64,000 nt of DNA from contig JAPJNB010000043.1 in NCBI GenBank assembly GCA_026461385.1, positions 4,718 through 68,717 on the forward strand, given 5' to 3'. The notes under the pieces are model-generated. The model made no database searches. It was given only the letters and a program-made list of their open reading frames with translations, and was not told the DNA's origin. The translations under genes and the position numbers were made by a program. Shown piece by piece: positions 32,410 to 52,139 of the stretch (the stretch's first letter is position 1; every line of letters starts with the position of its first letter). The stretch is from Akkermansiaceae bacterium. Lineage in GTDB: Bacteria; Verrucomicrobiota; Verrucomicrobiia; Verrucomicrobiales; Akkermansiaceae.

Positions 32410-33453
32410 TCACCTGCCGCGAGCGGGTCCGGTGCTTTCGCGCAGGATCAATTGGCTTGCGAGCACCTTCTCGCGCGGACCTTCTTTGGTTTTCCCCTCG
32501 ATCCGATCAAAGAGCATCTCCACGGCGTATTGGCTGATCTCATCAATCGGTTGGGCGATCGACGTGAGGCTGGGATTCAGTAACGGGCAAAGTGAGATGT
32601 CATCCACGCCGATGACCGAAAGGTCGCGTGGCACTTGCAAGCCGACATCGTGCGCTCCGCGCAAGGCCCCGATGCCGCAGAGGTCGTTCAATCCGATCAC
32701 CGCGGTCGGCGGGTTGCCTTTCCGGCTGTCAATCAGGCGGTGGAATGCTTCTTTTGCGCCGGCCATCGTGTGATCCGAAGGCTCCACGTATAAATCCTTT
32801 TCGTCGAATCCAAGATTGCGGGCTATGTTGAGAAATATTTCTTGGCGGCCGTTATCCGCCTGATTTTCTGCGAGTGCTCGGATGAAACCTACGCGTGAGT
32901 GGCCTGTGCGGCGCAGATAGGAAAGTGCCTGACCGAGGCCGCCCTCGAAGTCCACGGTGATTAGGTCAACGGGTAGCGGCCTAGCTCCCCGCTGGCCGGC
33001 CACCACCATGGGGATGCCGTATTTGATGTGGCTTTTCAGGAAGTCCGCATGAACCGGCGGATCGATCAAGCAGGCAATGATGCCGTCCACTTGGCGGTCC
33101 ATGATGCTTTCCAGGCATTTCATTTCGCGAAGCAAATCGACTCGGCTGTGTTCGATGATAAGGTCGTAGCCGCGGGCTTCTGCCGCAAGCTCGAGCTGAT
33201 CTGCTAGACTCATGAAGAATGGATTGTTCAGGTCAGGCACGATCAGTCCAATCGTGTCGAACCTACGCTTCTTGACTGCCAATGCGATCCGGTTAGGCCG
33301 ATATCCAAGGCGTTTCGCTTCTTCCAGCACTCGAGCGCGGGTTGCTTCTGATGCCCAGCAATTCGGGCGATCATTGAGCACCATGGAAGCCGTATTGGTG
33401 GCGACTCCCGCCGCCTTCGCGACATCCACGAGCCTAGGTCGTTTTACGTCCAT
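32410..33453 (-). CDS. LacI-family transcriptional regulator
   Basis: Likely start ATG 33453 (MDVKRPRLVDVAKAAGVATNTASMVLN). LGYRPN, IGLIVPDLNNPFF, VPRDLSVIGVDD and LTSIAQP. The ORF track extends it to 33558. Confidence 0.92.
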   Translation of the reverse strand: MDVKRPRLVDVAKAAGVATNTASMVLNDRPNCWASEATRARVLEEAKRLGYRPNRIALAVKKRRFDTIGLIVPDLNNPFFMSLADQLELAAEARGYDLIIEHSRVDLLREMKCLESIMDRQVDGIIACLIDPPVHADFLKSHIKYGIPMVVAGQRGARPLPVDLITVDFEGGLGQALSYLRRTGHSRVGFIRALAENQADNGRQEIFLNIARNLGFDEKDLYVEPSDHTMAGAKEAFHRLIDSRKGNPPTAVIGLNDLCGIGALRGAHDVGLQVPRDLSVIGVDDISLCPLLNPSLTSIAQPIDEISQYAVEMLFDRIEGKTKEGPREKVLASQLILRESTGPARGR

Positions 33454-33627
33454 TGGTCCGTTTTCCGCTACCGAGCGTTTCATGCCCGGCGCTGATTTTT
33501 TTCCGGAGTTGTCCATGCGTGAAAGAGATAAGCTGCTGTTTGTTTCAATTTTCAACACAATTTCTCGCTAGGAGAAATATCCCATCAGGAGGGAGGCAAA
33601 GACCGAAGGGGTAATTTTCTGCCTCAT

Positions 33628-33641
33628 ACGAAACATTTCAT
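33628..33641 (-). promoter_or_regulatory. Candidate LacI operator upstream of lacI (autoregulation)
   Basis: Minus strand ATGAAATGTTTCGT, a 12/14 match to the ATGAAATGATTCAT site found three times downstream. Confidence 0.5.
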
Positions 33642-33938: not shown

Positions 33939-33964
33939 TTGATTCAAACATGAAATGATTCATG
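33939..33964 (+). promoter_or_regulatory. Promoter/operator copy 1
   Basis: TTGATT-N5-ATGAAATGATTCATG upstream of the PEP-CTERM gene; the same layout recurs at 44196 and 48352. Confidence 0.7.
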
Positions 33965-34031: not shown

Positions 34032-34772
34032 ATGATCCCGAATATGAATATTAAGATTCTGACTCTTGCTGTAACCACCGTTGCCGCATTTTCACTCGTG
34101 CTCCAATCCGCCCACGCTGCTGTTTACTGGAACGGCAGCGTCAGCAGTGATTGGGCAGAAACGTCCAATTGGTCGGGCGGCCTGCCATCCACATCAGGTG
34201 CGGGCGATGCCATCATCAACCCCGGCTCACCCAATGTAAAACCAGTGATCAGCACCCCAGTGGCTGCCACCGTTGGGCAGACATACGTGTCCATTGGTGC
34301 GGGCTTGCAGGTTACCACGGGCGGAAGCTTGACCACCGTTAGTTTGATCACGGGGATCTGGGGCCATAGCGACGTCGTCGACGTCTCGGGGGGGAGCCTG
34401 ACTATCTCAAATAACTTGCTGCTGGGCTACTCTGGTTATGACGGAAAGATGAACATCTCCGGCGGCACGGTGACCGCCAACAATTTATCCATCAACATGG
34501 GTGGCGGAGCCAAGATGAACCTCGGCGGTTCGGGTGCCTTCATTGCGCCGGTCAGTAACCTCGGAAATATCAACTACTGGATCGCCAATAATGCCATCAT
34601 CGCGGGCAACGGTGCATCTGGATGGTCGGTCAACGTTGACACCACGAGCAATGCAGGCAACGTCGTTCTAACCGCAGTGCCGGAACCTTCGGTTTCCCTG
34701 CTGGCGGTTGGCGGAGCTTTGGGATGCTGTTTCCTGAGGTCGCGCCGGAAGAGCGCTTCCTTCCAGGATTGA
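34032..34772 (+). CDS. PEP-CTERM surface protein with a ~190-aa beta-rich domain
   Basis: Signal peptide ending SAHA; C-terminal VPEPS, a hydrophobic helix and basic RSRRK. Confidence 0.9.
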   Translation: MIPNMNIKILTLAVTTVAAFSLVLQSAHAAVYWNGSVSSDWAETSNWSGGLPSTSGAGDAIINPGSPNVKPVISTPVAATVGQTYVSIGAGLQVTTGGSLTTVSLITGIWGHSDVVDVSGGSLTISNNLLLGYSGYDGKMNISGGTVTANNLSINMGGGAKMNLGGSGAFIAPVSNLGNINYWIANNAIIAGNGASGWSVNVDTTSNAGNVVLTAVPEPSVSLLAVGGALGCCFLRSRRKSASFQD

Positions 34773-34836: not shown

Positions 34837-37800
34837 ATGAGAATCACCCTCTTTTTCTCCGGCATCCGCTCCGGTTCGCGGCCTGTTTCAGGAGCCTCAC
34901 GGCAGAATGAAACTCTCAGCAGCCCGTCAGTTTTCAGTCATGAACTGAACGCTGTCGGAGGAGCTGAGGCATTGGCGGCGAATCGCAGCTTGGCGAGAAA
35001 ACCGAGAGTGAAGGCTGTGAAGCATTTTACGGGGTATTTCATCCGAGCCTTCTCGATCTTTCTCATGCTCACGCCTTCCGGATGGGCCGCCACGTCGACC
35101 TTGAGCACCAGCGGAGCATGGGCGACTGCGTCCAATTGGACACCGAGCGGTGTGCCGGGATCCACCTCCGATGTCGTGGTCAATGGGGCCAAATACGCCA
35201 TCGTTTCCACCAGTGCCGGCAGCATCAAGTCGATGGCCTTGGGGAATCAGTCGGGCGAGGGAGCCATCAACATGCGTGCGGGTGGCAACCTGACGGTGTC
35301 GAATGGGAGCGGGGTTTCTGTGGTGGTCGGTGGACCGGGAGCAGCTGGCAGCCAAGTAAGCCCCTACCCGGCGTACTACAGCCACGAAGATGGGAATTTC
35401 AGCACCACGGGGGACATGGTCGTCGGCACGAGCACGCTTTCTGGCCAAGCGTTTTTCAGTAAAGGCAAACTGAGCGTGGGTGGCAGGTTGAAAATTGGTG
35501 TCCAGACGGCAGGCGGCTCCGAGTTTAAAATCAACGGTGCCGGATCAGGTGTCTCGACTCTTGCCGTGAACGGGCTTGAAGTGGGCAGCAAGGGGACGCT
35601 GAACTTTGACTATCTGGGCGGCGCAGGAGTACTCGCGATTTCCGTCGCGAATCAGGTCAGCCTCAGCACCGGTTCGACCTTGATCGTTAGCAACGCCGCC
35701 GCTCTCCAAGCTGGGACATATAACTTGGTCAATGGAGGATCCATCTCCGGAACCTTTGGTGCCACGAACGTTTCGGGTCTGCCCACCTACATGTCTGCGG
35801 AAATTCAGTATGACGCCGCCAACGGGGATGTGAATTTGGTGGTAACCAATTCGATCACGGAATTTGACAATTATGATGGCGATGGATTGTGGTCGACGTC
35901 GCAGAACTGGAATCCCTTCTATCCCGATGCGACGTCTTTTGGAAGATTGCTGGCATTCGTGCAGGTCACGTCTGCGGTAGAAATTGGTTATCTCGAAATA
36001 GGAACCACACAGGCGAACTACGGGTTAAATCTGTGGGACGAGGCTGGATCACTGACCCTCAGCCGTGCAGGTGTTTCCTTGGTTGTTGGTGCCGCGAATA
36101 ATGCGGGCGGGGGTGCCAACTACCCAGGAGGAATCGGCTACCCAAATTACTATTCTCATGCCGCCGGAAGCTTGACCACGGTGGGCGACATGATCCTCGG
36201 CGCGAATGGCGCTAAGGTTGAGGCGTCTTTTTCTAGTGGATCGGTCAGCGTGGGAGGGACCCTCCGTTTGGGTTCATATCAAAGCTCAGGCGCATCGGTT
36301 TTTGAGTTAAGGGGCGGAGGCGGCACGCTTGCGACGCACGACCTCGAAGTGGGCGACGCGGGGAAACTTGTCTTCGACTTCATTGGCGGCGCTTCGTTGA
36401 AAATCATGCATGTCACCGGACAGGCTTCGATGATCTCGGGGGCTAAGCTCGCCATCAAAAACACATCACAGAACCCAGCCGCCATCACTCCCACCACCTA
36501 CGACTTGATCCAGGCCGACTCGATTGTCGGGACTTTCTCGCAGGTGGACTTTTCGGGATTCCCCTCGTCGGTTGTTCCTCGGATCGCGTATTCGGGCAAA
36601 AAAATTCAGTTGGTGGTTGAATCGGCTTCGGGTGCGCCCGTGGTGGATGCCGGAACTTCTCGGTTAAGCGGCTACAGCCGTGTCGCGCCCCTCGGCGCAG
36701 CGGGTTACTCGTTTGGAAGTGGGGCGGACGGGGAAGATATCTATTATTCCGATTATTCCGCCGGAACCATCACTCGGGTTTCGGGTGGAGTTTCCACCAC
36801 GCTGAAATCCAACTTGGTGGGGATTTATTCCTTAGCGGTGAAGGGAAATAAAATGTACTTCGCGCGTGAATATGACAGCAATTACGGAACCGCCAAAATC
36901 TTCGTCATGACCAAGAGCGGGGCCACTTGGGGAGATCCTGTGCAAGTGGTGGGTGGCTTGACGAGGCCGAGGCAGCTTTTTATCGAGAGTTCGGGCAGCC
37001 TGTTGTTAGCCGTGGAGGCATTGGCTCAGGGTCAAGGAGGAGCCATTCTCAGGATCACTCCGGCGACCGGTGCATCGACCACGTTGGTGACTGGACTTTA
37101 TGCACCGCAAGCGGTGGTTTCGGATGCTTCAGGCAATCTTTATTTCAACGAATACGGCAGCACCACGGCAGACGGCACTCCGACCTTATCGGGCAAGCTC
37201 TGGAAAATGGCCGCAGGGACAACCACCAAGACCCAACTCCTTGAGGGTCGCCGCCTCCGCGGATTGGCGTTGGTGCCGGGGAGTCCGGACCAGTTGGTTC
37301 AGCTGGCCGAGGCCAACAACAACGACCAAGGAAATTCCTCAACGACCTCCATCCTGACGACTTCGGGCACCCTGCTCCGGACGATCGAGGGGGTGGATTA
37401 TCCTCAGTTCACTGGGGTCACCGCCTCCGGGAATGTGGTGACCACCTGCCCGCGTGATCTGGCGCTCCTCAGCATTCTTCCGAACAGCAGTTCCGGATCG
37501 GATTCGGCCATCGCGCTTCGGACTGGGGTGGATTCATTTGCCTGCGTTCGCGGTCTCTCGTATCGGACCAGTGGAGAGGGAAGATTCCCCGTGACCCTCA
37601 CAGGAATGAAGGATGGTTCTTTGACATTCTATGTTTCCCCTAACTCTAACAGAAAATTTGCCGGCTGGATCCGAATGACTAAATCCCAGTGGCCAGGGAT
37701 ATCCACCAGCGAGCTGGTTTCGAATCCTGGATATTACGCTCTGCCCCAACCGGGAGTCCAGTGTGCGATTGGAACCTTGAATCGGCTGCAGATTTTTCCA

Positions 37801-39804
37801 CATCGCAGCAGGAACATTTCCCGCTGGCCGATGACGAATGTGGGAACCGCGCAAGAAGCGCCTCAGGTAGGTTTTTCTGAAGCTCCGGAAGCTTATCTTG
37901 CCTATGTCGAAATTTCAGAGCTTGCCATGACCCTTGCTTGGGATGGCGGCGGTGGTGCTGATGCGGCTTGGTCTACGGCGGCAAACTGGAGCGGAGATGG
38001 GTTGCCGGGTGCTTCCGACAACGTGTTGGCGAACGGCGGCGTCTATGTCACCAGTGCCGTGGGGCCGGTTGGCAATGTGGTGGTAGGCAATGCGGCCGGT
38101 AACGGTGCCCTCAACTTGGTTTCCCCAGGGAGCCTGAGCGCGGCATCCATCAAGATCGGCGAAGCAAACAATGCCGGAGGTGGCACTGGGTACCCGAATT
38201 ATTTCCGCGGAGATGGTGGAGCCATTACGACGACGGGCGACTTGGTGATCGGGGCGAGTGGTGCCAAAATCGATGGCGTCTACACATGGGGTAATATCAC
38301 CGTCGGTGGCGCCCTGAAGATCGGCGCTGGGTACGCGGATCCGGGCGGCTCAAGCTTATTGTTACGAGGCGCATCCAGCACGATCTCATCGAACAGTCTA
38401 ACGATTGGCGGCGGGGTGAAGTTGATCATGGACTTTATCGGAGGCAACTCGATGCGGACCTTGACGTCGACGGGAGCCGTGACCTTGGAGTCGGGATCGT
38501 CGATCAAGATTGTGGGCAATTCGAGCGTGGTGACGGGAAATAACCGGCGCTTGATCGATGGCGGCGCCGGTCAGTTGAGTGGAACATTTAGCAATGTGAC
38601 CTTTGAAGGGTTCTCATCCAACGTAGTCCCCAGTTTGGTCTATAACAGCACTGACGGAGATGTCTGGCTGGTGGTTTCCACTCGTGTGGTTTCTTGGGAC
38701 GCGGGTGGGGCAGCCGATCAGAAATGGTCCACGGTTGCAAACTGGAGCGGGGATGTCTTGCCGGGATCTGGGGACGATGTGTTGCTGAACGGTGGAGCTC
38801 AGGTGACAACGGCGGCGGGCCCGGTTGGGAACGTGGTGGTGGGAAATGCCAGTAGCAACGGAGCGTTGAACATGATTTCCCCGGGAAGTTTGACTGCTAC
38901 ATCCTTGACGATTGGGGCGGCCAACAACACCGGGGGAGGCACAGGATATTCGAACTACTTCTATGGGAATGGAGGCAATATTACGACGACGGGCGACTTA
39001 GTGATCGGGGCGAGTGGAGCGAAGATCGATGGCATCTACACATGGGGTAATATCAACGTTGGTGGCGCTCTAAAGATCGGCGCTGGGTACGCGGATCCGG
39101 GCGGCTCAAGCTTATTGTTACGAGGCGCATCCAGCACGATCTCATCGAACAGTTTAACGATTGGCGGCGGGGTGAAGTTGATCATGGACTTTATCGGAGG
39201 CAACTCGATGCGGACCTTGACGTCGACGGGGGCCGTGACCTTGGAGTCGGGATCGTCGATCAAGATTGTGGGCAATTCGAGCGTGGTGACGGGAAATAAC
39301 CGGCGCTTGATCGATGGCGGTGCCGGTCAGCTGAGTGGAACATTTAGCAATGTGACCTTTGAAGGGTTCTCATCCAACGTAGTTCCCAGTTTGGTCTATA
39401 ACAGCACCGACGGAGATGTTTGGCTGGTGGTGAGTGCTGGAGGAACCACGTTCGCATCTTGGTCAGGTTCTGCGGCTGCGGCAGACAGCATCTCCCTCAT
39501 GAAATATGGGGTCGGCGGGTCAGCGAGCCCCTCCGGGACTTCCGAAAAAATCGTCTTGTCCCTCGATACCACAAGCTTGTCGATCAGCGCGATTGTGCGG
39601 GTAGATGACGCCAAGCTGACGGTGGTGGGTCAGTCATCCACGAACTTGATTGGCTCTTGGACCGATCTATCCCAAAATCTAACAGGTTCCATTAGTTCCG
39701 ACCAGGCGGGAGTTCCTGCCGGTTGCCAACGGCGGATCTTCAGCATCAGCAAGGGGTCGAATCCGAAGATGTTCTTAAGACTCAAGGTCTTGATGAGCAA
39801 CTGA
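34837..39804 (+). CDS. Large secreted multidomain protein (beta-helix-like repeats, NHL/SMP30-like propeller, tandem 252-aa duplication)
   Basis: Open 1655-aa frame; probable start GTG 35008 before signal-like YFIRAFSIFLMLTPSGWA. Repeated W-S/A-T-A-x-N-W modules; propeller-like PQAVVSDASGNLYFNEY and PRQLFIESSGSLLLA; C-terminal FLRLKV tail. Confidence 0.85.
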   Translation: MRITLFFSGIRSGSRPVSGASRQNETLSSPSVFSHELNAVGGAEALAANRSLARKPRVKAVKHFTGYFIRAFSIFLMLTPSGWAATSTLSTSGAWATASNWTPSGVPGSTSDVVVNGAKYAIVSTSAGSIKSMALGNQSGEGAINMRAGGNLTVSNGSGVSVVVGGPGAAGSQVSPYPAYYSHEDGNFSTTGDMVVGTSTLSGQAFFSKGKLSVGGRLKIGVQTAGGSEFKINGAGSGVSTLAVNGLEVGSKGTLNFDYLGGAGVLAISVANQVSLSTGSTLIVSNAAALQAGTYNLVNGGSISGTFGATNVSGLPTYMSAEIQYDAANGDVNLVVTNSITEFDNYDGDGLWSTSQNWNPFYPDATSFGRLLAFVQVTSAVEIGYLEIGTTQANYGLNLWDEAGSLTLSRAGVSLVVGAANNAGGGANYPGGIGYPNYYSHAAGSLTTVGDMILGANGAKVEASFSSGSVSVGGTLRLGSYQSSGASVFELRGGGGTLATHDLEVGDAGKLVFDFIGGASLKIMHVTGQASMISGAKLAIKNTSQNPAAITPTTYDLIQADSIVGTFSQVDFSGFPSSVVPRIAYSGKKIQLVVESASGAPVVDAGTSRLSGYSRVAPLGAAGYSFGSGADGEDIYYSDYSAGTITRVSGGVSTTLKSNLVGIYSLAVKGNKMYFAREYDSNYGTAKIFVMTKSGATWGDPVQVVGGLTRPRQLFIESSGSLLLAVEALAQGQGGAILRITPATGASTTLVTGLYAPQAVVSDASGNLYFNEYGSTTADGTPTLSGKLWKMAAGTTTKTQLLEGRRLRGLALVPGSPDQLVQLAEANNNDQGNSSTTSILTTSGTLLRTIEGVDYPQFTGVTASGNVVTTCPRDLALLSILPNSSSGSDSAIALRTGVDSFACVRGLSYRTSGEGRFPVTLTGMKDGSLTFYVSPNSNRKFAGWIRMTKSQWPGISTSELVSNPGYYALPQPGVQCAIGTLNRLQIFPHRSRNISRWPMTNVGTAQEAPQVGFSEAPEAYLAYVEISELAMTLAWDGGGGADAAWSTAANWSGDGLPGASDNVLANGGVYVTSAVGPVGNVVVGNAAGNGALNLVSPGSLSAASIKIGEANNAGGGTGYPNYFRGDGGAITTTGDLVIGASGAKIDGVYTWGNITVGGALKIGAGYADPGGSSLLLRGASSTISSNSLTIGGGVKLIMDFIGGNSMRTLTSTGAVTLESGSSIKIVGNSSVVTGNNRRLIDGGAGQLSGTFSNVTFEGFSSNVVPSLVYNSTDGDVWLVVSTRVVSWDAGGAADQKWSTVANWSGDVLPGSGDDVLLNGGAQVTTAAGPVGNVVVGNASSNGALNMISPGSLTATSLTIGAANNTGGGTGYSNYFYGNGGNITTTGDLVIGASGAKIDGIYTWGNINVGGALKIGAGYADPGGSSLLLRGASSTISSNSLTIGGGVKLIMDFIGGNSMRTLTSTGAVTLESGSSIKIVGNSSVVTGNNRRLIDGGAGQLSGTFSNVTFEGFSSNVVPSLVYNSTDGDVWLVVSAGGTTFASWSGSAAAADSISLMKYGVGGSASPSGTSEKIVLSLDTTSLSISAIVRVDDAKLTVVGQSSTNLIGSWTDLSQNLTGSISSDQAGVPAGCQRRIFSISKGSNPKMFLRLKVLMSN
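37930..39431 (+). repeat. Intragenic tandem duplication, 756-bp period
   Basis: The W codons at 37939 and 38695 and the ATTACGACGACGGG starts at 38224 and 38980 are 756 bp apart. 38224-38675 versus 38980-39431 differ at about 16 positions by eye. Confidence 0.9.
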
Positions 39805-39871: not shown

Positions 39872-41770
39872 ATGTTAGACAGAAACACGACACTCATCAC
39901 GCTGGCCAATGCGCTCAAGCGACTCATCCATCCGAGGTGCATCCAGCTGTTGCTCCTTTGGATCGTCCTCATGCTTGCCTCCACCGAAACTCGCGCCCAA
40001 TCGCATCGGGCCGCGCAAGAGGTCGACTACAAGGTGGGATTTTTGGGTGCCCCCTGTCACCCGGAGGTGGAGTGGAATTCGGCGAATCTACAGCGCATGA
40101 AGGATCTGGGGTTCAATGTTCTGCAACTGAACATTGCTTGGGGTTATCGCCCCAATGATGAGGCCCTCAATCTCGAAGACGTGGTCGACTTGCCGATGGA
40201 AATTTCTCGCACGGCTGGCGACAAGAGCCGTGAGCCTATGCGAACTCCCGAAAGGATCGGCCGCCGGAGTGAAAAACTGCGGCAGCGGATCGACATCAGC
40301 CAGAAATTTGGATTTCGAACGATGTTCCATTTTGGAGCGCCGAATGTGTTGTATCCGCCGGAATCTCCGGGGGCACCTGGGGTGATTTTGGATCAGTGCA
40401 TTTCGGATCAAGCGACCCTCACAAGGTATATCATTCTCCTACGAGCGTTTCATGCCAAGTTCCCGGAGGTGGATGATCTGTTATGCTATACTTATGATCA
40501 AAATGCATGGCTCTGCAACGAGGTGGGAGCCTGTCGCAAGTGCCGTGGTGTTCCGTTGGCCAAGCGGGTTTCTAACTTCATCAACACTTTGGCTCGGACC
40601 TGGCGTGAACTCAACCCAGCGGGCACCTTGTTCTGGGAGCCTTGGGAACTTTCCGCAGGCCAGGCGTATCAGTCCGTTGATTTGCTCGATCCATCCTGTG
40701 TGGGGCTTTCGCTGCACTCCAACATTGCGGAAGTCCAAATTGCCTTCCCGGCGGACCGCTGGTTCAAAAACATGCTGACCAAAGCGGAGGAAAGGAAAAT
40801 ACCTGTCCTTGGGGAGTTGTGGACCGGCAGCCCCACCGAGGAGATGGAACCATTTCTGCACATCGCCACCCCGCTGGCCACGCTACGTGCTCTTCGCGCG
40901 GTGAACGAGGCGGGAAAGCTCAAAGGGATCAAAGAATACTATGGCAACGTGCCGGATCAAGAAGACCCTAACCTGCGCATGTCGGGCCTGTTCTTTAAAA
41001 ACCCAAACATCGGTGATGATGAGGCACTCGTGCAGTTGGCCTCGCCCTACGGTGACGCCGCTGAAGAGGTTGCGAAGGTTTGGAGGCTGACCTCCGAAGC
41101 GGTGGAAATGTACCCGTGGGACGTTTCCTGGTTGGCTCGGGAAGTCGGACGAAGTACCCCCAAGCACGCGCTGAGCGCAGCGATTCTGAAGGGCGCCAGT
41201 TGGCAGACGCCGAGTTGGCAGGCCAACCGCAGAGTCGACTTCATGAGAACCGACGAGACAGCGGCACCAAACTTCTGGATGTGTGAAGATGTTCAATTGC
41301 GGTTTGAGCAAACGGCCCATAAACTCGATGCCAGCATTCAGGCGGCCGAGGCCGTGCAACGCAAAGTCCCGGAAATCTATCAGAAAGATTTCGCCAAGAG
41401 CATCGAGGAACTGAAGGCCTTCCGTGTCCGCGTGCTGGCCTATGCCTACCACCTTCGAGAGACAAATCTAACCAATCTAATGCGCGGGGACGTCCAGCAG
41501 GGACTTGAGTTGAATCAAGAAAACATCCGGGCACTCAGAGAAGTGATGTTGAAAGATCAGCAAAACATGGGAAGCAAGGAACCGCTCGGGACTGCGATCC
41601 AGATGCTTGATGCGGATCTTAAAAAATTTCTAACAACCTACTTCCTTCCTTGGTCAGAATCCACTAAAAATCAGGATTGGGCTGAATGGGGGAGCGCCGC
41701 GAACTGGACGATCACATCGCCCAACGAGTTCTTTGAAACACACATAAATGACCATGGGAAAAACGATTAA
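39872..41770 (+). CDS. Secreted protein of unknown function, TIM-barrel glycoside-hydrolase-like; paralog of the C-terminal part of 44319-46676
   Basis: Signal-like IQLLLLWIVLMLASTETRA; LQRMKDLGFNVLQLNIAWG resembles the first strand/helix of clan GH-A-like barrels; YTYDQNAWLCNEVGACRKC. Confidence 0.6.
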   Translation: MLDRNTTLITLANALKRLIHPRCIQLLLLWIVLMLASTETRAQSHRAAQEVDYKVGFLGAPCHPEVEWNSANLQRMKDLGFNVLQLNIAWGYRPNDEALNLEDVVDLPMEISRTAGDKSREPMRTPERIGRRSEKLRQRIDISQKFGFRTMFHFGAPNVLYPPESPGAPGVILDQCISDQATLTRYIILLRAFHAKFPEVDDLLCYTYDQNAWLCNEVGACRKCRGVPLAKRVSNFINTLARTWRELNPAGTLFWEPWELSAGQAYQSVDLLDPSCVGLSLHSNIAEVQIAFPADRWFKNMLTKAEERKIPVLGELWTGSPTEEMEPFLHIATPLATLRALRAVNEAGKLKGIKEYYGNVPDQEDPNLRMSGLFFKNPNIGDDEALVQLASPYGDAAEEVAKVWRLTSEAVEMYPWDVSWLAREVGRSTPKHALSAAILKGASWQTPSWQANRRVDFMRTDETAAPNFWMCEDVQLRFEQTAHKLDASIQAAEAVQRKVPEIYQKDFAKSIEELKAFRVRVLAYAYHLRETNLTNLMRGDVQQGLELNQENIRALREVMLKDQQNMGSKEPLGTAIQMLDADLKKFLTTYFLPWSESTKNQDWAEWGSAANWTITSPNEFFETHINDHGKND

Positions 41771-44318: not shown

Positions 44319-46676
44319 ATGAGAAACTACAGAATAAAAAGTTATAGAATGAAAAACGATAGAATTGCCACGGTCGCAGCGACGGCATTCGCATTGCTTC
44401 CGGCAGTCCTTCAAGCCGATGTTTTCTGGAACGGCGCGGCGAGCGGCGATTGGTCTGATGCCGCGAATTGGAAGGGCGGCCTGCCATCTCAGGCGGATGC
44501 GGGAAACGTGGTCATCAATCCGGGGTCACCTTTTGCGGAACCGGTCGTCAAGACGCCGGGCGTGATTACGGCAGGGCAAACCTATCTATCCATTGGTGCC
44601 AGTTTGAGCATCGCGAACGGCGGAGAAATGACCACGACCGATTTGGTCACTGGGAGCTGGGGGGATAGCTCGACGGTATCCGTCAAGGGCGGAACCCTGA
44701 ACATCCGTGGCATTCTGAATTTGGGGGCCGGTGGTCATGATGGTGATGTGAAGGTCTCGGGTGGTTTGGTTAGAGCATCCGGTCTATCCATCAATGGTAC
44801 CAGTGGAGCGACTCTGGACATCTCTGACTCCGGGTCCGTCATTCTGCCAGCCAGCCAGCTGGACAACATCGGTCACTGGGTGGAAAGCAACAGCATCACC
44901 GCCAACGGCGGAGCCGCTGGATGGTCCTTGCGCATCGATTCCAAGAGCCAACCCGACAAGGCCATCATCAAAGCGGTGTTCACCCCGCCGCTCACCGATC
45001 TCATCACGGGATGCAAACACAAGCAGCCCGAAGGTGGAAAACCCAAGGATTGTTGCCGGGGAAATTATCAATATTTCGTAGGAATCGTCGGAAATCCGTT
45101 GGTGCCGGAAATCAGATGGAGCGATGATGAACTCGAGAAAATCAAGGATCTCGGCGTCAACATGGTGCAGCTCAGCATCGCATGGGGCGGCAAGCCTGCC
45201 AATGAAGTCCTCAATCTCGAGGATCTCGATGATCCTGCACAGCGGGAGAAATTCGCATTCCGGATCTCACAGGCGAAAAAGCATGGACTCAAGACGCTCG
45301 CCCATTTCGGCATCCCGCGGGCAGTGAACGCGAATCCCGTGCGCCCCGCGTGCATTCTCGATTCGGAGGTGTGTGCGAAATATACGGCAAGGATCAAGGC
45401 GTTCATGACAGACTTCCCCGGGGTCGATGATGTCCTCGTTTACACCTTCGACCAGCAGGCGTGGCTGTGCAGTGAATTCGGCCCATGCCCACGCTGCAGC
45501 GGCATCCCCGTCGGCGAGCGCCTGCCGGCCTTCCTCGACATGCTCAACGACGCCATGCGTTCGGTTCGGCCAAGCTCCAGACTCTGGTGGAAACCGTGGG
45601 AGTTGTCGCGGGGCCAAGTGGTGACGGTTCTCGAGCGGGTCAAGGCCGAGGGCTTCGGCTTGGCACTCAACCCGTCCACCAGCAACGAGGTCTATCCATT
45701 CAACGACCGATCCTTTGCCTCCGATCTGGGCGTGAAACGCATGGTGCGCTCCGCCTATGAGCGCGGGATTCCCGTACTGGGCGAGTTCGATCACACATTC
45801 TACAAGCCATCTTACGCAATCGAGGACTTCTTCCCACGCCTGATCTTCGAACAAATGCAGGGTTGGAAAGGAATGGAGGGGATTGTCGGCGTGAAGGAAT
45901 ACTTTGGTTTCGCTCCATCCACGTTCTCTGTTAATTGCGCCATGCTCAAAGCGTGGATGAGGTCGCCGGATGCCAAGCTCGACACGCTGCTCCAAGAAAT
46001 CGTCACGCCATACGGCAAGGCTGCGGCTCCGCACATGATCGCAGCATGGGAATATGTTGCTCAATCGGTTGAAGCTTTCCCGTGGGACACCACCTATCTA
46101 ATCGGCCCGATGGGACTGGACCGCGGAAGTGACGGCTCACACGACTGGAAACCCGTGACGATCTCGAGCGGCACGTGGGACACGCCGATCTGGAAGACGA
46201 ACCGCCGTGGGAATTTCATGCTGACCGATGCACCCAAGGCGCATCCGTGGCTGTTTGAAGATGCCGGGCTCCGGTTGGAAGATTCCGCCGCCCTCGCTTT
46301 CAAGGCAGCGGACTTGTTCGAAAAAGCCATTGCCGCCGGTGGGGAACGCGCCGATGATATCCGCAAGCAACTGGAAATCACCCGCAGGATGGCCCGCTCC
46401 ATCCGCATGAAATCTCTCCATTTCCTCCAGACTCTTGCCACCCAAGACGCACGCATGGTTCAGCATGATCCAAAACAATTCCCGATCGTCATCCAGCGCC
46501 TCGAAGGCCTGCTGAAGAGGGATGTGAAAAACCAAGGCGGGCGTGCCGAGGTGGCTCAGAAACTCGCCGAGCTGCAGAGCAATCCAAAGGCGTGGCTGAG
46601 CACCAACTACCTGCCCTTCGAATACGAGACCAAGACGGTCATCGATTGGAGTCGCTGGATACCGCGCCAAGACTGA
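44319..46676 (+). CDS. Secreted fusion: shared ~190-aa N-terminal domain plus the unassigned TIM-barrel-like enzyme domain
   Basis: VFWNGAASGDWSDAANWKGGLPS...VINPGSP matches 34032 and 48448; VGIVGNP...IKDLGVNMVQLSIAWG...NLED and YTFDQQAWLCSEFGPCPRC match 39872. Confidence 0.8.
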   Translation: MRNYRIKSYRMKNDRIATVAATAFALLPAVLQADVFWNGAASGDWSDAANWKGGLPSQADAGNVVINPGSPFAEPVVKTPGVITAGQTYLSIGASLSIANGGEMTTTDLVTGSWGDSSTVSVKGGTLNIRGILNLGAGGHDGDVKVSGGLVRASGLSINGTSGATLDISDSGSVILPASQLDNIGHWVESNSITANGGAAGWSLRIDSKSQPDKAIIKAVFTPPLTDLITGCKHKQPEGGKPKDCCRGNYQYFVGIVGNPLVPEIRWSDDELEKIKDLGVNMVQLSIAWGGKPANEVLNLEDLDDPAQREKFAFRISQAKKHGLKTLAHFGIPRAVNANPVRPACILDSEVCAKYTARIKAFMTDFPGVDDVLVYTFDQQAWLCSEFGPCPRCSGIPVGERLPAFLDMLNDAMRSVRPSSRLWWKPWELSRGQVVTVLERVKAEGFGLALNPSTSNEVYPFNDRSFASDLGVKRMVRSAYERGIPVLGEFDHTFYKPSYAIEDFFPRLIFEQMQGWKGMEGIVGVKEYFGFAPSTFSVNCAMLKAWMRSPDAKLDTLLQEIVTPYGKAAAPHMIAAWEYVAQSVEAFPWDTTYLIGPMGLDRGSDGSHDWKPVTISSGTWDTPIWKTNRRGNFMLTDAPKAHPWLFEDAGLRLEDSAALAFKAADLFEKAIAAGGERADDIRKQLEITRRMARSIRMKSLHFLQTLATQDARMVQHDPKQFPIVIQRLEGLLKRDVKNQGGRAEVAQKLAELQSNPKAWLSTNYLPFEYETKTVIDWSRWIPRQD

Positions 46677-46687
46677 CAATCCATTCC

Positions 46688-47407
46688 ATGACGGACGCCA
46701 TGCGAAATCAATCGAAACCCACCCAAGGCTTCACGCTCGTCGAGTTGCTGATCGTCATTGCCATCGTGGCGGTGCTGGCGGCGGTTACCATGTCGGTCTC
46801 ACGCAGGATGATGGCATCCGCAAATGAAACGGTGTGCGCGGCCAATCTTCGCGGCCTGGCCACAGCCCTCAACAGTTATGCTGCGGAAAACAACGGGGTT
46901 TTCCCCGTCTCCGACCAAGGCAACCGATCACCAAGCAACTGGATTGTGGCGCTTCTGGACGGCGAGTATCTCAACGCAAAGCAAGGGGACACCCAGCGCT
47001 CTTTCGTCAACAGCCGGGGGAAGAACGGCCTCTTCTGCCCCGCCGCAATCCGCGTGGCGAAGCCTTTGGACGGCAACTGGAACACCTATGCAATGAACGT
47101 TCAAGCAGGCGGCTGGTATCAATCCGCAGGCCAGGCACCGGCCGCACGCTTGCCGCGTGTCCAGTATCCGGCGGAAACCGCTCTCGTCATGGACGGCTGC
47201 AGGGTCAGCGGGAATTATTACGTGACGACGGTGGGCCGCGCCGACTGGTTTCCCGAGATGGTGCATCCACCCGAACTGCTCAACCAACCCAAGGATCTGA
47301 ATCGGGGTGCCAACGTGGCTTTTGTCGACGGCCATACGGAATTTCGCAAAGTTTCAAAAATTCCCACCGATACCACCGGAGTTTTTTGGAGTGGCATCAA
47401 GCCTTGA
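46688..47407 (+). CDS. Prepilin-type N-terminal cleavage/methylation domain protein with an H-X-DG tail
   Basis: KPTQG|FTLVELLIVIAIVAVLAA; ETVCAANLRGL; C-terminal GANVAFVDGH. Start ATG 46688 or 46700 rather than 46592. Confidence 0.88.
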   Translation: MTDAMRNQSKPTQGFTLVELLIVIAIVAVLAAVTMSVSRRMMASANETVCAANLRGLATALNSYAAENNGVFPVSDQGNRSPSNWIVALLDGEYLNAKQGDTQRSFVNSRGKNGLFCPAAIRVAKPLDGNWNTYAMNVQAGGWYQSAGQAPAARLPRVQYPAETALVMDGCRVSGNYYVTTVGRADWFPEMVHPPELLNQPKDLNRGANVAFVDGHTEFRKVSKIPTDTTGVFWSGIKP

Positions 47408-47447: not shown

Positions 47448-48308
47448 ATGATGAATCAGATCCGTTCGATGGCCATCGGGGCGACACTGTCATTGATCCA
47501 ACCCGCATCCGCGGAACTTCCCATGCTGGAACAGCCATGGCTCGGCTACTTCGCAGTCGCACAGGAACGAAACTTTCAGTTTTTGTTCAGCTCGAAAGGC
47601 GGCTTCAACCTCATGGTCCTCGATCATCAAGGCGCTCCGATTCAGCAATCCATCGGCCTGCAATTCCTCGGATTGGAAACTCTCCCAGATGGCAGCATCA
47701 AGGAATTGCCGATGGCATTGGACACCTTTGAATCCTCGGATCCACCCACCGCCAAGCTCAAGAAGACGGTTTTTAGATTCAAATTGACCGATCAGGCGAC
47801 CGGCCAAGCGATCGGCCAACCTACCATGGAGGGCACCATCGAGATCATCAGCGGGACCGTTCTTGCCAACGCTCGGATCATCGACAAGGGAGCATCCGAT
47901 AAAAACCCCATTCAACCGGTGATCCGTACGATCTTCACGGCCTTCTACGTGAATGAGAACATTCACAAAGAATCTTGGGACAGGAAACAAGTCAAAGAGT
48001 TCGAAAAGCGGATCGGCGCAGATTCCGTAACCTTAAAACACCTCGATGAGAAACGGGTCAAACTGGTCTGCGTTGATAAGACCGATCCAAAATCCAAGGA
48101 GGTGAACGGCGGCGGCAGTTCCTTGGCTGAGGTGGAGATCAGTTTCTATCAGAAGCGGAAAATTGAGCTTCTTGCCGCCCCCAACTCATCGCTCACCCTT
48201 TGCAATGCGGGCCCGGCTCCACTCCACCATGGCTTCTGGTTCCAATGGTCCGCCGATGCCGCCAAAGACCCCGATGGCAAAGCCAAACTCGCGCTCAGGA
48301 TCCAATAG
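47448..48308 (+). CDS. Secreted hypothetical protein
   Basis: Signal peptide AIGATLSLIQPASA; 286-aa open frame co-oriented after the pilin-like gene; no motif recognised. Confidence 0.7.
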   Translation: MMNQIRSMAIGATLSLIQPASAELPMLEQPWLGYFAVAQERNFQFLFSSKGGFNLMVLDHQGAPIQQSIGLQFLGLETLPDGSIKELPMALDTFESSDPPTAKLKKTVFRFKLTDQATGQAIGQPTMEGTIEIISGTVLANARIIDKGASDKNPIQPVIRTIFTAFYVNENIHKESWDRKQVKEFEKRIGADSVTLKHLDEKRVKLVCVDKTDPKSKEVNGGGSSLAEVEISFYQKRKIELLAAPNSSLTLCNAGPAPLHHGFWFQWSADAAKDPDGKAKLALRIQ

Positions 48309-48351: not shown

Positions 48352-48377
48352 TTGACCACGATATGAAATGATTCATG
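48352..48377 (+). promoter_or_regulatory. Promoter/operator copy 3
   Basis: TTGACC-N5-ATGAAATGATTCATG. Confidence 0.7.
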
Positions 48378-48447: not shown

Positions 48448-50655
48448 ATGAACCCCAAACGCAAGAACACGGCCATTGCATTGACCACCATGGCTCTCAT
48501 TTCACTATCTTTTGAATCCGCCCGCGCCGCCGTTTACTGGAACGGTAGCGTCAGCAGTGATTGGGCAGAAGCCTCCAACTGGACAGGCGGCTTGCCATCC
48601 ACATCGGGTGCGGGCGATGCCATCATCAACCCCGGCAGCTCACCCAATGAGAAGCCCGTGATCAGTTCCGCAGTGGCTACCACCGTTGGGCAGACTTACG
48701 TGTCCATCGGTGCGGGTTTGCAGGTTACCACGGGCGGAAGCTTGACCACCGTTAGTTTGATCACGGGGATCTGGGGCGACAGCAACGTGGTCGATGTCTC
48801 GGGAGGAACCCTGACCATCTCAAATAACCTGCTGCTGGGCTACGGCGGCTATGATGGGAAAATCAATATCTCTGGCGGAACGGTGACTGCCAACTATCTA
48901 TCCATCAACACGACACGCGGAGCCAAGATGAACCTCGGTGGCACAGGTTCCTTCATCGCGCCCGCCAGCAACCTCGGCAACATCAACTATTGGATCGCAA
49001 ACAATGCGATTATCGCCGGCAACGGCGCAGCCGGATGGTCGGTGGTGGCTGATACTACTAGCCTCTCGGGCAAGGTGATCCTTACCGCCTTCAATCCGAA
49101 CAATGTTTTCACGGCTGCCAACAACAACAACTACGCCGAGAGTGGCAATTGGAACAACGGGCTCGTTCCGACCTCTGCCCAGTCCGCCTTCATCAACCAG
49201 CACCGCACGGCGGAACTCAGCACCAACCCGTCGCCGAACCAGCCGGGAAGCCTCTACGTCGGTCAGGGAACCGGCAGCGAAAGTGGCACATTGGAGGTCT
49301 CCTCAGCCGGAGTTCTGAGCCCGGGCAATCTGCTCATCGGTCGCGACGGATCCAGCTCTGGAACGATCAACCAATCGGGCGGCACGGTCACGGTGACCGG
49401 CGGGACGTTCGGCATCAGCAGCAATTCTAATGGCGCAGGCAGTTATCACTTGTCCGGTGGCACCCTTGCGGCGACTTCAGCCCCCCTGTGGCTGGGCTAC
49501 GGCACCGGAACTACCACCGGCACCGGCAACTTCACGATGAGCGGCGGCACGCTGAGCCTCGGCTCCTATTTCAGCGCAGCCTTCGCCAGTGGCACAAAAG
49601 CCAATGTGTCATTCAGCGGCGGCAACGCGACGATCGCCGGCAGCCTCACGGTCGGACGTCAGGGCAAGGGGCTTGCCGAAATTTCCGGCACCGCCTACGT
49701 CAACCCCGCCACGCTGCAAGTCGTCGAGTCCGGTGAGGGTGCCGCCGATTCCACGCTGACCGTCAGTGGAGGAACGCTCGCCGTGAGCCGCCAGATCAAT
49801 GTCGGCAATTCCGTCGATACCGGAGTGGCATCTAGCATGGTCATCAGCGGAGGCGCAGTTACTTGGCACGCGGACGGCCAGACCTCCGGATTGTTCAGCG
49901 TTTACAGCGAGGTGAAGGTCAGTGGCAATTCGGCAACGATCGGCAGTAACGCGTCGACCGATGCTCTCTTCAACGTTCGCGCCACTGGTAAACTGCGCTA
50001 TCAACTTGCTGCCAATGGCTCGGTTGCGTTGATCAACGTGCCCAACGCCACGATGGGAATTGCCCAAGGCGCGCAGTTGATCATCGACGGCTCGGCACTC
50101 TCACTCGGCGCTGGTACTTACTCGATCACCTTGGTGGATCACAATGGCTACTCGGCTGCCGCTGCTTTCGGTGCCACGAGCATGTCACACAGCTTTGTTG
50201 GCTTCGGACTGACTTGCACACCGACGATCAGTTACGACGCGTCTGCCATCACCTTGCATCTATCGGTGGGCGGTGGCTCCGACTATGATTCGTGGAAAAG
50301 CACCAACAATTTGACTGGCGGACCAAATGCCGACGACGATGGAGATGGTGTGAAAAACTCCGACGAATACGCTTTCGGCCTCAATCCGAAGTCCGGAAGC
50401 TCGGCCAACCCGATCAGTTCTGCGGTCGACAAGGCGACCGGCATCTTCAAGTACACCCGTCGCAAGCAGTCGCTCACCGGGGTAGCTTACACCTATGAGT
50501 CGTCCACCACGCTTACGGGCACATGGCCGGCCTTCACTCCAAACTCTGCTACCTCTAACAATGGCGATCCCATCGAAGAAATTACCGTCGATGTGCCAGA
50601 CGCGTTGCTGACCCATCCCGCGCTGTTTATCCGCGTGAAAGCCGTCCAGCCATGA
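48448..50655 (+). CDS. Secreted beta-helix-like protein with the shared N-terminal domain and a C-terminal DxDGDG/sorting-like domain
   Basis: N-domain nearly identical to the PEP-CTERM gene (AVYWNGSVSSDWAE...NYWIANNAIIAGNGA); Gly/Thr/Ser-rich SGGTL repeats; tail DDDGDGVKNSDEYAFGLNP...FIRVK. Confidence 0.85.
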   Translation: MNPKRKNTAIALTTMALISLSFESARAAVYWNGSVSSDWAEASNWTGGLPSTSGAGDAIINPGSSPNEKPVISSAVATTVGQTYVSIGAGLQVTTGGSLTTVSLITGIWGDSNVVDVSGGTLTISNNLLLGYGGYDGKINISGGTVTANYLSINTTRGAKMNLGGTGSFIAPASNLGNINYWIANNAIIAGNGAAGWSVVADTTSLSGKVILTAFNPNNVFTAANNNNYAESGNWNNGLVPTSAQSAFINQHRTAELSTNPSPNQPGSLYVGQGTGSESGTLEVSSAGVLSPGNLLIGRDGSSSGTINQSGGTVTVTGGTFGISSNSNGAGSYHLSGGTLAATSAPLWLGYGTGTTTGTGNFTMSGGTLSLGSYFSAAFASGTKANVSFSGGNATIAGSLTVGRQGKGLAEISGTAYVNPATLQVVESGEGAADSTLTVSGGTLAVSRQINVGNSVDTGVASSMVISGGAVTWHADGQTSGLFSVYSEVKVSGNSATIGSNASTDALFNVRATGKLRYQLAANGSVALINVPNATMGIAQGAQLIIDGSALSLGAGTYSITLVDHNGYSAAAAFGATSMSHSFVGFGLTCTPTISYDASAITLHLSVGGGSDYDSWKSTNNLTGGPNADDDGDGVKNSDEYAFGLNPKSGSSANPISSAVDKATGIFKYTRRKQSLTGVAYTYESSTTLTGTWPAFTPNSATSNNGDPIEEITVDVPDALLTHPALFIRVKAVQP

Positions 50656-52139
50656 ACCTCATGGTGGCGTCCGCCCTTGCAGCGCTCCTACTGGCTCTGC
50701 CATGGGACGCTTGCAGGGCGGATGCGGTGCGCAGCAAGCCCAATATTCTATTTCTTCTAACAGATGATCAGCGTTGGGATACGCTCGGGTGCATGGGAAA
50801 CCCCGTGATCCAAACCCCGAACCTCGACCATCTCGCCGCTCAGGGGATCTTGTTTCGCAACGCGTTTGTCACCGCTTCCGTGTGCAGTGTGAGCCGAGCC
50901 GCCATCCTGACCGGTGCTTATCCGTGCTCGCGCGGAACGAAGGATCTAGCAAAAATGGTGACTCCCAAGGAGGTAAACGCGACCTACCCAGCTGTTTTGC
51001 GTGCGGGTGGCTATGACACCGGCTACATCGGCAAGTGGGATGTGGGGGTGGGCGAGGACGGGTTCCGCATGGGCATGAACCTTTTTGATTACTGGGCCGG
51101 AGACCGCTTTCACGGCAACTATTGGCATGAGGCGGACTGCCCACTGGTGACCAACGAGGGTCGTCAGTCCAAATCGGAAATCAAATGCACCTGCACCCCG
51201 GAAGGATCCATGCCACGCATCGGTTCCGCAGGCATGAATCATCCTATCCACTTTGACCGTGAGATCGTTCCGGTCAAGATGAGGCAGTATCTTGCAGGGC
51301 GTGACAAAGCGAAACCGTTTTTCTTGGCCATCGCATTTCGCGGACCCAAGGACCCATGGGCGGACTACCCGAAAAATGTCGCCGAGCTTTATGCTTCTAA
51401 CACCATGCCCATCCCGGCCACGGCGACAACGGCGGATGCCATGCGCCAACCCGCTTTCCTGCGGGCTTCCATGGGGAGTGAGGCCGGCTTTTCGCGGGTC
51501 AGTAATCCTGCCACCCTGGCCGATGAACTGCGGAAAAACTACCGGTTAGTTTCTAACATCGATGATACGATTGGAGAACTTCGTCGGATTCTAGTAGAGC
51601 AAGGACTGGATTCTAACACCATCATCGTCTTCACCTCCGACAACGGGCATTTTCACGGGGACCACGGTTTCTGGGGCAAATGGCTGCCTTACGAGGAATC
51701 CATTAGGGTGCCATTGGTCGTTTTTGATCCCCGCCTGTCGGAGCAGCAGCGTGGCGTGACACGCGGAGAGATGATTCTCAATGTCGATCTCGCACCAACC
51801 TTTCTGACGTGGGCCGGTTTACCCGTCCCTTCGACCATGCAGGGCAGGGACTTTGCACCGCTGGAGGGTGGCGGCAGCCCGCCATGGCGTGAGGACTTCT
51901 ATCACGAGTTCACTTGGACCGCGGAAGGACGGATTGCCCCGAGCGAAGGCATCCGGTCAGCTCAGTGGAAATACATCCGCTATCCTGGCCAAAATCCCGT
52001 GGTGGAGCAGTTGTTCAATCTACAAAACGATCCCGGTGAAACGACGGATCTCATCGCCGACCCCGCCCATTCCACCGCACTTGAGTCGCTACGAATCAAG
52101 CTCGAGGCCCACAGGACCCATCTCTCCGCGGTAAACTGA
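50652..52139 (+). CDS. Secreted sulfatase (S1 family)
   Basis: KPNILFLLTDDQR, VCSVSRAAILTG (formylglycine motif variant), YIGKW, FTSDNG, GKWLPYEESIRVP and LFNLQNDPGE. ATGA overlap with the upstream stop. Confidence 0.92.
   Translation: MNLMVASALAALLLALPWDACRADAVRSKPNILFLLTDDQRWDTLGCMGNPVIQTPNLDHLAAQGILFRNAFVTASVCSVSRAAILTGAYPCSRGTKDLAKMVTPKEVNATYPAVLRAGGYDTGYIGKWDVGVGEDGFRMGMNLFDYWAGDRFHGNYWHEADCPLVTNEGRQSKSEIKCTCTPEGSMPRIGSAGMNHPIHFDREIVPVKMRQYLAGRDKAKPFFLAIAFRGPKDPWADYPKNVAELYASNTMPIPATATTADAMRQPAFLRASMGSEAGFSRVSNPATLADELRKNYRLVSNIDDTIGELRRILVEQGLDSNTIIVFTSDNGHFHGDHGFWGKWLPYEESIRVPLVVFDPRLSEQQRGVTRGEMILNVDLAPTFLTWAGLPVPSTMQGRDFAPLEGGGSPPWREDFYHEFTWTAEGRIAPSEGIRSAQWKYIRYPGQNPVVEQLFNLQNDPGETTDLIADPAHSTALESLRIKLEAHRTHLSAVN

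Follow-up and report, generated by a model that had tools for sequence, protein, structure and literature searches.

A LacI-linked locus without SusC/SusD in an Akkermansiaceae bacterium encodes candidate new glycosidases and probably targets a rhamnose-containing glycan

The window analyzed here, a 64,000-nt stretch of contig JAPJNB010000043.1 in assembly GCA_026461385.1 (Akkermansiaceae bacterium from a lake), contains a LacI-linked locus that probably serves glycan utilization. At positions 32410–52139, a minus-strand gene for a LacI-family repressor (32410..33558) is divergent from nine co-oriented plus-strand open reading frames (ORFs). On visual inspection of the translated sequences, Sec signal peptides are apparent at eight N-termini and a prepilin leader at the ninth. 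The nine genes encode, in this order, a secreted protein with a 190-aa module and a PEP-CTERM anchor (34032..34772), a giant surface protein of 1655 aa (34837..39804), the secreted ORF4 (39872..41770; 632 aa), termed T4, the secreted ORF5 (41748..44120; 790 aa), termed GH95L, ORF6 (44319..46676; 785 aa), termed T6, a pseudopilin-like protein (46592..47407), the secreted ORF8 (47448..48308; 286 aa), ORF9 (48448..50655; 735 aa), and a secreted S1 sulfatase (50652..52139). Only four features are recognized by Pfam (2025) and NCBIfam (2026), namely the LacI regulator, the PEP-CTERM tail (below cut-off), the prepilin leader, and the sulfatase. No Pfam family was assigned to the 1655-aa protein as a whole, ORF4, ORF6, ORF8, or ORF9, and Pfam, NCBIfam, and the PDB (2026) together returned nothing usable for T4, T6, ORF8, and ORF9. 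Neither a TonB-dependent receptor nor SusD was found among the likely-gene long ORFs scanned between 27.5 and 64 kb, and a polysaccharide utilization locus (PUL) of the Bacteroidota type is ruled out for the window, as no susC or susD is present among these ORFs. The initial annotation, made from the sequence alone, had described the same gene order, strands, and export signals and the same lack of a TonB receptor or SusD. It had also named a PEP-CTERM protein, two paralogous barrel enzymes, a GH95/65-like protein, a pilin-like protein, a sulfatase, and adjacent transporter, isomerase, and rhamnose genes. All of these labels are borne out by the results below, the PEP-CTERM label through a tail that is plain in the sequence, and the GH95/65-like label through a fold match, no Pfam model of GH95 or GH65 reaching its cut-off.

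The product of the LacI gene contains both domains of the LacI/GalR family, the helix-turn-helix (HTH) domain (PF00356, E 2e-10) and the periplasmic-binding fold (Peripla_BP_3/1; PF13377, E 5e-33). Its NCBIfam matches are RbsR/CytR/CcpA-like, and all of them fall under the equivalog cut-offs. The nine genes are predicted to form three transcription units, each headed by a common 14-nt operator. Since a scan of the locus for sigma-70 promoters and terminators remained at chance level, the unit boundaries are drawn from the shared operator block. The 14-mer ATGAAATGATTCAT occurs in exactly three identical plus-strand copies, one per unit: O1 (33950..33963), within a conserved CTTGA...ATGAAATGATTCATG block, heads unit 1, O2 (44207..44220) heads unit 2, and O3 (48363..48376) heads unit 3. 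A block ending in ATGAAATGATTCATG precedes the genes starting at 34032, 44319, and 48448. A fourth, two-mismatch variant, ATGAAATGTTTCGT, is located on the minus strand (33628..33641) about 70 bp 5′ of lacI, suggesting that the repressor may control its own gene. Against an expectation of 0.42 matches, four were observed, and none of 100 shuffles reached four. The pattern ATGAAATGWTTCRT occurs in the 3.79-Mb assembly (94% complete) at these four sites only. The operator arms ATGAA/TTCAT would fit a dimeric site of the LacI type. All four sites are kept in the closest foreign locus (L009; related loci of other genomes are numbered with the prefix L), whose proteins are 85–94% identical to those of the window. 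In the more distant L007, a near-perfect palindrome, ATGAATCAATTCAT, occupies the equivalent site between lacI and the giant gene.

Over the C-terminal 550 aa of T6, identity to T4 is 31%, and this T4-like part is fused to an N-terminal 190-aa module. The AlphaFold model (AF2) of T4, with a pLDDT (predicted local distance difference test) of 81.6, comprises a (β/α)8 TIM barrel and, C-terminal to it, a long helical domain. Its top Foldseek matches are all glycoside hydrolases (GHs), including GH138, GH67, GH20, GH84, GH89, and GH115, with template-modeling (TM) scores of 0.4–0.53 and about 10% identity, and the best single match is GH138. The barrel-then-helical-domain architecture is shared with GH138, GH67, GH115, and GH20, although at this identity there is no relation to them at the sequence level. 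No PDB relative of the T4 family was found by single-sequence (phmmer) or profile search. Membership of T4 and T6 in GH138 or GH67 is thus ruled out, as neither search reached such a PDB chain and the likeness is one of fold. Homologues of T4 in the protein database number more than 622, all named 'hypothetical' and without Pfam domains. Among 96 aligned members, there is no variation at E102, D103, D209, E217, E259, E355, E472, or D562, and all but one retain E315. In the model, D209, E259, E315, and E355 are located at or just after strands β4, β5, β7, and β8, respectively, E102 and D103 lie in the loop after β2, and E472 and D562 lie in the helical C-terminal domain. T4 is, on these grounds, a candidate glycosidase of an unannotated family.

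A further feature of this family is a set of four cysteines, of which C176, C221, and C224 are conserved in 96/96 members and C215 in 92/96. They form a C-x5-C-x2-C pattern right after strand β4 plus one earlier cysteine. As the four cysteines persist in homologues that have no signal peptide, they suggest a metal site rather than disulfides. To our knowledge, no such conserved four-cysteine set occurs in GH138, GH67, GH115, or GH20.

T4 is 54–60% identical between Verrucomicrobiota and Bacteroidota, and T6 is 58–64% identical to Bacteroidota proteins of the T6 type located after SusD. Because both types co-occur in four phyla, the T4/T6 duplication is judged to be ancient. The homologues from Firmicutes and Chloroflexota have no signal peptide, and in Cohnella (L069) and Paenibacillus agaridevorans (L070) the T4 gene adjoins ABC-importer genes and AraC regulators. 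Since such cytoplasmic homologues are found beside importers, T4 is probably exo-acting on small or imported oligosaccharides. A T4 homologue without a signal peptide is also found in a metagenome-assembled genome (MAG) of a Thermoproteota archaeon (L082, contig JBGOYZ010000018.1), reflecting either horizontal transfer or a binning error. In eight of the 80 best related loci, T4 is directly adjoined by a protein of about 611 aa without a Pfam match, 'u9' (e.g., L025:11762-13606, L039:11857-13704, and L051:8214-10040). It was considered as a third T4 paralogue and ruled out by an hhalign probability of 0.2%.

The AF2 model of GH95L (pLDDT 85.3) shows a β-sandwich, an (α/α)6 barrel, and a second β-sandwich, the domain layout of GH95, GH65, and GH139 (clan GH-L). 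Foldseek comparisons with these three families gave TM scores of 0.64–0.69 at only 12–14% identity. At the profile level, there was only a marginal touch on the GH139 structures 9hyq and 9hmb and on one GH95 fucosidase, and the Pfam matches, to DUF5703_N and GH65N, are sub-threshold. GH95 membership is ruled out, as no GH95 Pfam model appears at E up to 0.01 and the motif region differs: the HxNxNxQM region of GH95 reads PEYDLVLNQM in GH95L, in which E372 and D374 are invariant. GH65 membership is likewise ruled out, Glyco_hydro_65N scoring 16.8 bits against a cut-off of 26.6. The GH95L family has 148 homologues. In Bacteroidota, it forms the C-terminal part of proteins of 1370–1715 aa (L033:1026-5201, L037:1115-5236, L023:668-5812, and L040:11854-16599). 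An N-terminal Laminin_G_3 domain is present in those of L033 and L023, and the L033 protein also bears a sorting tail of the type IX secretion system (T9SS). These fusions parallel the module fusions of bacteria of the Planctomycetota–Verrucomicrobiota–Chlamydiota (PVC) group described below.

Three of the remaining proteins share the 190-aa module. It spans residues ~29–215 of the PEP-CTERM protein and recurs N-terminally in ORF9 (80% identity) and T6 (48%). In ORF9, which has no Pfam or PDB relative, the module is followed by a region of repeats rich in Gly, Ser, and Thr and then by a C-terminal domain. A hidden Markov model built from the three copies found nothing further in this genome. 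The module is also rare globally, being found in 138 of 1.84 billion representative proteins at E up to 1e-3, of which 21 reach 1e-30. In other organisms, its fusion partners belong to the same enzyme set: T6 (P0250), the propeller domain of the giant protein (P0269), the GH95L family (P0259, 34% identity over 736 aa), and a GH43-like family (P0248) that is also present in loci L007, L008, and L020. Fusions to CBM9-like, Ig-like, and PATR (passenger-associated transport) regions occur as well. From this distribution, the module would be either a substrate-binding module or a surface assembly device for the enzyme set, and the standalone PEP-CTERM copy and the giant protein fit either role. The PEP-CTERM tail VPEPSVSLLAVGGALGCCFLRSRRK consists of VPEPS, a hydrophobic stretch, and the basic RSRRK. 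It scores 17.6 bits (E 0.004) against a Pfam cut-off of 20.7. The genome encodes an Exosortase_EpsH (151 bits, contig C250), and with its visible tail the 34032–34772 product qualifies as an exosortase substrate.

The giant protein is built of four repeats of ~250 aa (residues 95–336, 343–607, 1033–1280, and 1281–1532) around a central domain (aa 612–1030; 36670..37926, plus strand). The central domain is homologous to T9SS-secreted propeller proteins of Bacteroidota loci, with 26–31% identity and E values of 1e-22 to 1e-32, and the conserved motifs include TRPRQL, DYPQF, and RWPMxN. A profile of this family matched Pizza/PknD propellers (E 1e-39 to 1e-20) and Vgb lyase (E 1e-8 to 5e-11). Seven of eight aligned members match PF24684; the window's own segment matches no Pfam family. 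The center of the giant protein is thus predicted to be a propeller of the NHL/PknD type with a distant relationship to Vgb lyase, plus a conserved extension of ~150 aa. Repeats B3 and B4 correspond to a 756-nt (252-aa) tandem duplication within the giant gene; over the 300 nt compared between them (37934–38233 versus 38690–38989), DNA identity is 69%.

The sulfatase is a member of the S1 family, with matches to the Pfam domains Sulfatase (PF00884, E 1e-46) and SGSH_C, and its active-site motif CSVSR conforms to the S1 consensus C/S-x-P/A-x-R, aligned with CAASR of 6hr5. This structure, the S1_25 module of a GH78/sulfatase fusion of Formosa agariphila, is the best PDB relative over the full length (E 6e-69), scoring 236 bits compared with 186 bits for the next match, and the usual proline of the cysteine motif is absent from both proteins. 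Characterized S1_25 enzymes are exo-3-sulfo-L-rhamnose and exo-3-sulfo-L-fucose sulfatases (PMC9096561). Full-length similarity and the Pro-less motif link the window sulfatase to SulfAtlas S1_25 (P36_S1_25 of F. agariphila and SWF4 of Wenyingzhuangia), and by its best PDB relative it is a putative member of this subfamily. In contrast to the GH78 fusion, the window sulfatase is a stand-alone protein. It is 48–54% identical to sulfatases in five loci of other phyla (four of Paludibacter/Bacteroidales and one of Hydrogenedentes) and 70% identical to a partial sulfatase in L007.

The distribution of the enzymes was examined by scanning one genome per species in a 185,579-species collection for the T4 family, which gave 198 stretches. 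They come from at least nine bacterial phyla in all, including Verrucomicrobiota, Planctomycetota, Bacteroidota, Ignavibacteria, Chloroflexota, Acidobacteriota, Lentisphaerota, and Hydrogenedentota, as well as from Paenibacillus, Cohnella, Deinococcus pimensis, and the archaeal MAG mentioned above. For the 80 best loci of other genomes, ORFs were called and clustered, representatives were annotated with Pfam, and neighbors within 10 kb of T4 were counted. A T6-type paralogue is present in 20 of these loci, SusC in 17, GH78 and a cluster of AraC regulators in 14 each, GH127 and the GH95L family in 12 each, a sulfatase and the isomerase family discussed below in 11 each, and rhaM in eight. A gene tied directly to rhamnose (GH78, GH106, or rhaM) occurs in 22/80. 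In three Paludibacter/Bacteroidales loci (L033, L034, and L037), the order [T9SS protein]-GH95L-T6-sulfatase-isomerase-T4-rhaM is co-oriented and tightly packed; in a fourth (L044), the string stops at T4. Chitinophagaceae loci read SusC-SusD-T6-propeller-T4, and an Aestuariivivens locus reads SusC-SusD-T6-GH127-T4-rhaM. These recurrent strings indicate that T4, T6, GH95L, the sulfatase, the propeller, and the isomerase are one functional set, which would be older than the phyla that carry it. URO-D-like proteins, of a methyltransferase/decarboxylase fold, also recur in T4 loci (L062:14210-15358, L049:14523-15734, L057, and L073), where they might remove O-methyl groups from sugars.

Within its own lineage, the T4/T6 family was found in none of 30 relatives (18 of the same genus and 12 of the same order). 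A flanking gene for an ABC-cNMP exporter is absent from 20 genus relatives, and the isomerase is present in five that have no T4/T6. The boundaries of the island are not definable by synteny with genus relatives. This part of the contig is regarded as a variable region because of the absence of T4/T6 from the 30 relatives and the uniqueness of the ABC-cNMP gene within the genus. The locus is thus an accessory trait, and its spread is probably horizontal.

Immediately beyond the sulfatase are genes for sugar transport and catabolism: a GPH-family MFS symporter (52096..53580, minus strand; MFS_2 E 4e-67, TIGR00792), an isomerase of the AraA/FucI superfamily (53742..55172, minus strand), an AraC/RhaS-like regulator (55237..56139, plus strand), the L-rhamnose isomerase RhaA (56492–57760, plus strand; E 2e-215), and the rhamnose-proton symporter RhaT (57813–58988, plus strand; E 6e-69). 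The regulator belongs to the AraC cluster counted above, which stands directly beside T4 in several loci. As the isomerase–MFS and Rha genes have no operator copy, they are presumably under this AraC-type regulator. The isomerase matches the AraA and FucI C-terminal domains weakly, and its scores of 37.8–40.7 bits against the NCBIfam AraA equivalog (cut-off 622) rule it out as a canonical AraA and leave it in the wider superfamily. A role as a FucI or RhaA substitute is also ruled out, both canonical enzymes being present in the genome. Because no canonical AraA was found in the genome, an L-arabinose-type role may be considered. Its family, automatically named 'L-arabinose isomerase' by JGI, has at least 8000 matches, the best 120 listed being 76–99% identical. 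The family being so large and also present without T4/T6, the isomerase is not specific to the system. In the 11 related loci that contain it, the isomerase is 52–78% identical to that of the window and mostly stands alongside GH95L. A functional link of the isomerase to the locus is therefore suggested, and GH95L may release the aldose that this enzyme converts. Elsewhere, the genome has at least six GH78 matches above the Pfam cut-off.

Taken together, the locus is probably a repressor-controlled, cell-surface system, lacking SusC/SusD, for the utilization of a rhamnose-containing and at least partly sulfated heteroglycan, possibly of algal, cyanobacterial, or plant origin. Best founded are its carbohydrate substrate and its link to rhamnose, together with the presence, in this lineage, of a sulfatase that is probably of the 3-sulfo-deoxyhexose type. 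The functional proposals of the initial annotation fare well in this light. Its assignment to glycan utilization agrees with the clustering of orthologues of the core proteins in other phyla, where they lie beside GH78, GH127, and rhaM and, in Bacteroidota, behind SusC/SusD. The sulfated or deoxy-sugar target it had proposed is in line with a sulfatase nearest to S1_25 and with the rhamnose genes in more than a quarter of the related loci (22/80). Its suggestion of new carbohydrate-active enzyme families is plausible: with no sequence relative in Pfam, NCBIfam, or the PDB and fold matches at 10–14% identity, at least two families, T4/T6 and GH95L, look unclassified, and no paper on either was found in the literature.

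Several observations weigh against this interpretation. The similarity of the T4 fold to known GHs is modest (TM 0.4–0.53), and the proposed binding of LacI to the 14-mer is deduced from position and symmetry alone. The absence of the operator from the isomerase–MFS and Rha genes places them outside the putative regulon, the isomerase family persists in genus relatives that have no T4/T6, and the MFS transporter is not conserved across the related loci. Furthermore, only six of the 11 neighboring sulfatases are close relatives (48–70% identity) of that of the window, and sulfate may therefore be a lineage-specific decoration of the substrate.

A working model of the glycan-utilization system can be outlined as follows. 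Without inducer, LacI would block the three promoters and its own, and a breakdown product would lift this repression. The PEP-CTERM module protein, the giant protein, and ORF9 would present the 190-aa module at the surface, where it would bind the glycan or assemble proteins. The propeller domain, T6, T4, and GH95L would then cleave glycosidic bonds, and the sulfatase would remove 3-O-sulfate from terminal L-rhamnose or L-fucose. Released sugars would enter via the GPH symporter and RhaT, and the AraA-like isomerase and RhaA, controlled by the AraC/RhaS-like regulator, would isomerize them. A more specific version, for which we would claim only a small likelihood, makes the module an assembly or targeting domain. 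Enzymes tagged with the module (T6 in the window, and GH95L, the propeller, and the GH43-like enzyme in other organisms) would be recruited by the PEP-CTERM copy and the giant protein into a multi-enzyme complex at the surface, built around two new Cys4 glycosidase families and aimed at a sulfated rhamnoglycan not so far described as a substrate of bacteria. Such a complex would play in Verrucomicrobiota the part that the cellulosome or the Sus surface complex plays elsewhere.

Among alternatives, a pectin-like glycan of plants or algae, unsulfated and composed of many kinds of sugar (similar to rhamnogalacturonan II (RG-II), arabinogalactan, or rhamnogalacturonan) survives best and is retained as a rival because most related loci (69/80) have no sulfatase within 10 kb; even so, we consider it rather improbable. 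T4/T6 and GH95L would then be distant analogues of the RG-II enzymes GH138 and GH139/GH95, and the sulfatase would be an add-on or an enzyme for another ester. This explanation gains from the best fold match of T4, GH138 being an RG-II α-galacturonidase, and from the GH139 and GH95 matches of GH95L, but fold matches at ~10–14% identity are not predictive of specificity. In other loci, T4 is found with GH127, GH78, GH2, GH43-like, and GH106-like genes, a mix reminiscent of Bacteroides RG-II loci, and the carriers include soil and gut bacteria. Yet close relatives of the sulfatase are embedded in the Paludibacter string between T6 and the isomerase, and the window sulfatase belongs to the third operator-headed unit.

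It is less probable still, and in our view unlikely, that the locus remodels the bacterium's own surface or exopolysaccharide or mediates adhesion, its enzymes trimming a self-made polymer instead of serving feeding. PEP-CTERM proteins and exosortase are classically tied to exopolysaccharide-producing bacteria, the genome has an exosortase, and surface proteins that are rich in repeats and non-enzymatic account for three of the nine products. However, the long ORFs scanned in and next to the locus include neither a glycosyltransferase gene nor one for polysaccharide export, control lies with a catabolic repressor of the LacI type, and a sugar symporter, isomerases, and rhamnose catabolic genes adjoin. 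The same enzymes, moreover, are found in SusC/SusD loci and beside ABC importers in other phyla. That the genes are neighbors by chance or share only their secretion, with no single substrate, is very improbable: ORF8, ORF9, and the MFS transporter do lack conserved partners in other loci and the region is variable, but the shared operator is restricted to the locus, a set of five to six families reappears in one phylum after another (in Paludibacter as a single packed, co-oriented string), and the module is fused elsewhere to the same enzyme set.

The glycan-utilization locus proposed here can be compared with several known systems. The ulvan PUL of Formosa agariphila and the RG-II PULs of Bacteroides thetaiotaomicron likewise combine regulator-linked secreted glycosidases, a sulfatase, and nearby sugar catabolism. 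The window sulfatase resembles the S1_25 module of the former, and the RG-II enzymes GH138 and GH139 are fold neighbors of T4 and GH95L. Unlike these Bacteroidota PULs, the locus has no SusC, SusD, or TonB receptor, its surface proteins are of the PEP-CTERM or repeat type, its main enzymes fall outside recognized families, and no polysaccharide lyase, GH105, or GH88 is present among the proteins scanned. Orthologues of its core enzymes nevertheless sit in genuine SusC/SusD loci of Bacteroidota. Fucoidan systems of PVC bacteria (Lentimonas, marine Verrucomicrobiota, and Planctomycetota) use the known families GH29, GH95, GH141, and GH107/168 together with many sulfatases (PMC8857213, PMC11685898). 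Like the window locus, they lack SusC/SusD. They pair exo-glycosidases with S1 sulfatases, including S1_25, against sulfated methyl pentoses, a combination that the window locus probably shares. The window locus differs from them in its single sulfatase, its unclassified enzymes, and its compact single-repressor regulon, and its nearest relatives are MAGs from lake metagenomes.

The locus is therefore best described as a single-repressor glycan-utilization locus without SusC/SusD, with enzyme families not yet classified as judged against Pfam, NCBIfam, and the PDB, and with a surface module specific to the system. It offers a compact, well-delimited entry to at least two candidate new GH families, T4/T6 and the divergent GH95-like one, and to further unstudied parts, namely the conserved propeller domain, the rare surface module, and the abundant AraA-like isomerase. 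As the enzymes are also encoded by the cultured Aestuariivivens sediminis, Flavivirga amylovorans, Paenibacillus agaridevorans, Paenibacillus mendelii, Cohnella phaseoli, and Deinococcus pimensis, a direct functional test is feasible. Knowledge of the substrate would identify a rhamnose-linked glycan for which bacteria of lakes, soil, sediment, and gut are equipped and would show how Verrucomicrobiota organize glycan capture without SusC/SusD.

Minor features of the window concern the two genes between T6 and ORF9 and the region after the rhamnose genes. The pilin-like protein (N_methyl E 5e-8; TIGR02532; TIGR04294) has a GspG-like N-terminus with the leader QG|FTLVELL, as in type IV pilins and pseudopilins of the type II secretion system, and an H-X9-DG motif; its true start is likely 46688 or 46700, and its adjacency to T6 recurs in L008 and L009. 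ORF8 has no recognizable relative beyond the closest genome. At 59848–63999, after the rhamnose genes, an open-ended ORF encodes 13 PATR repeats within at least 1384 aa.

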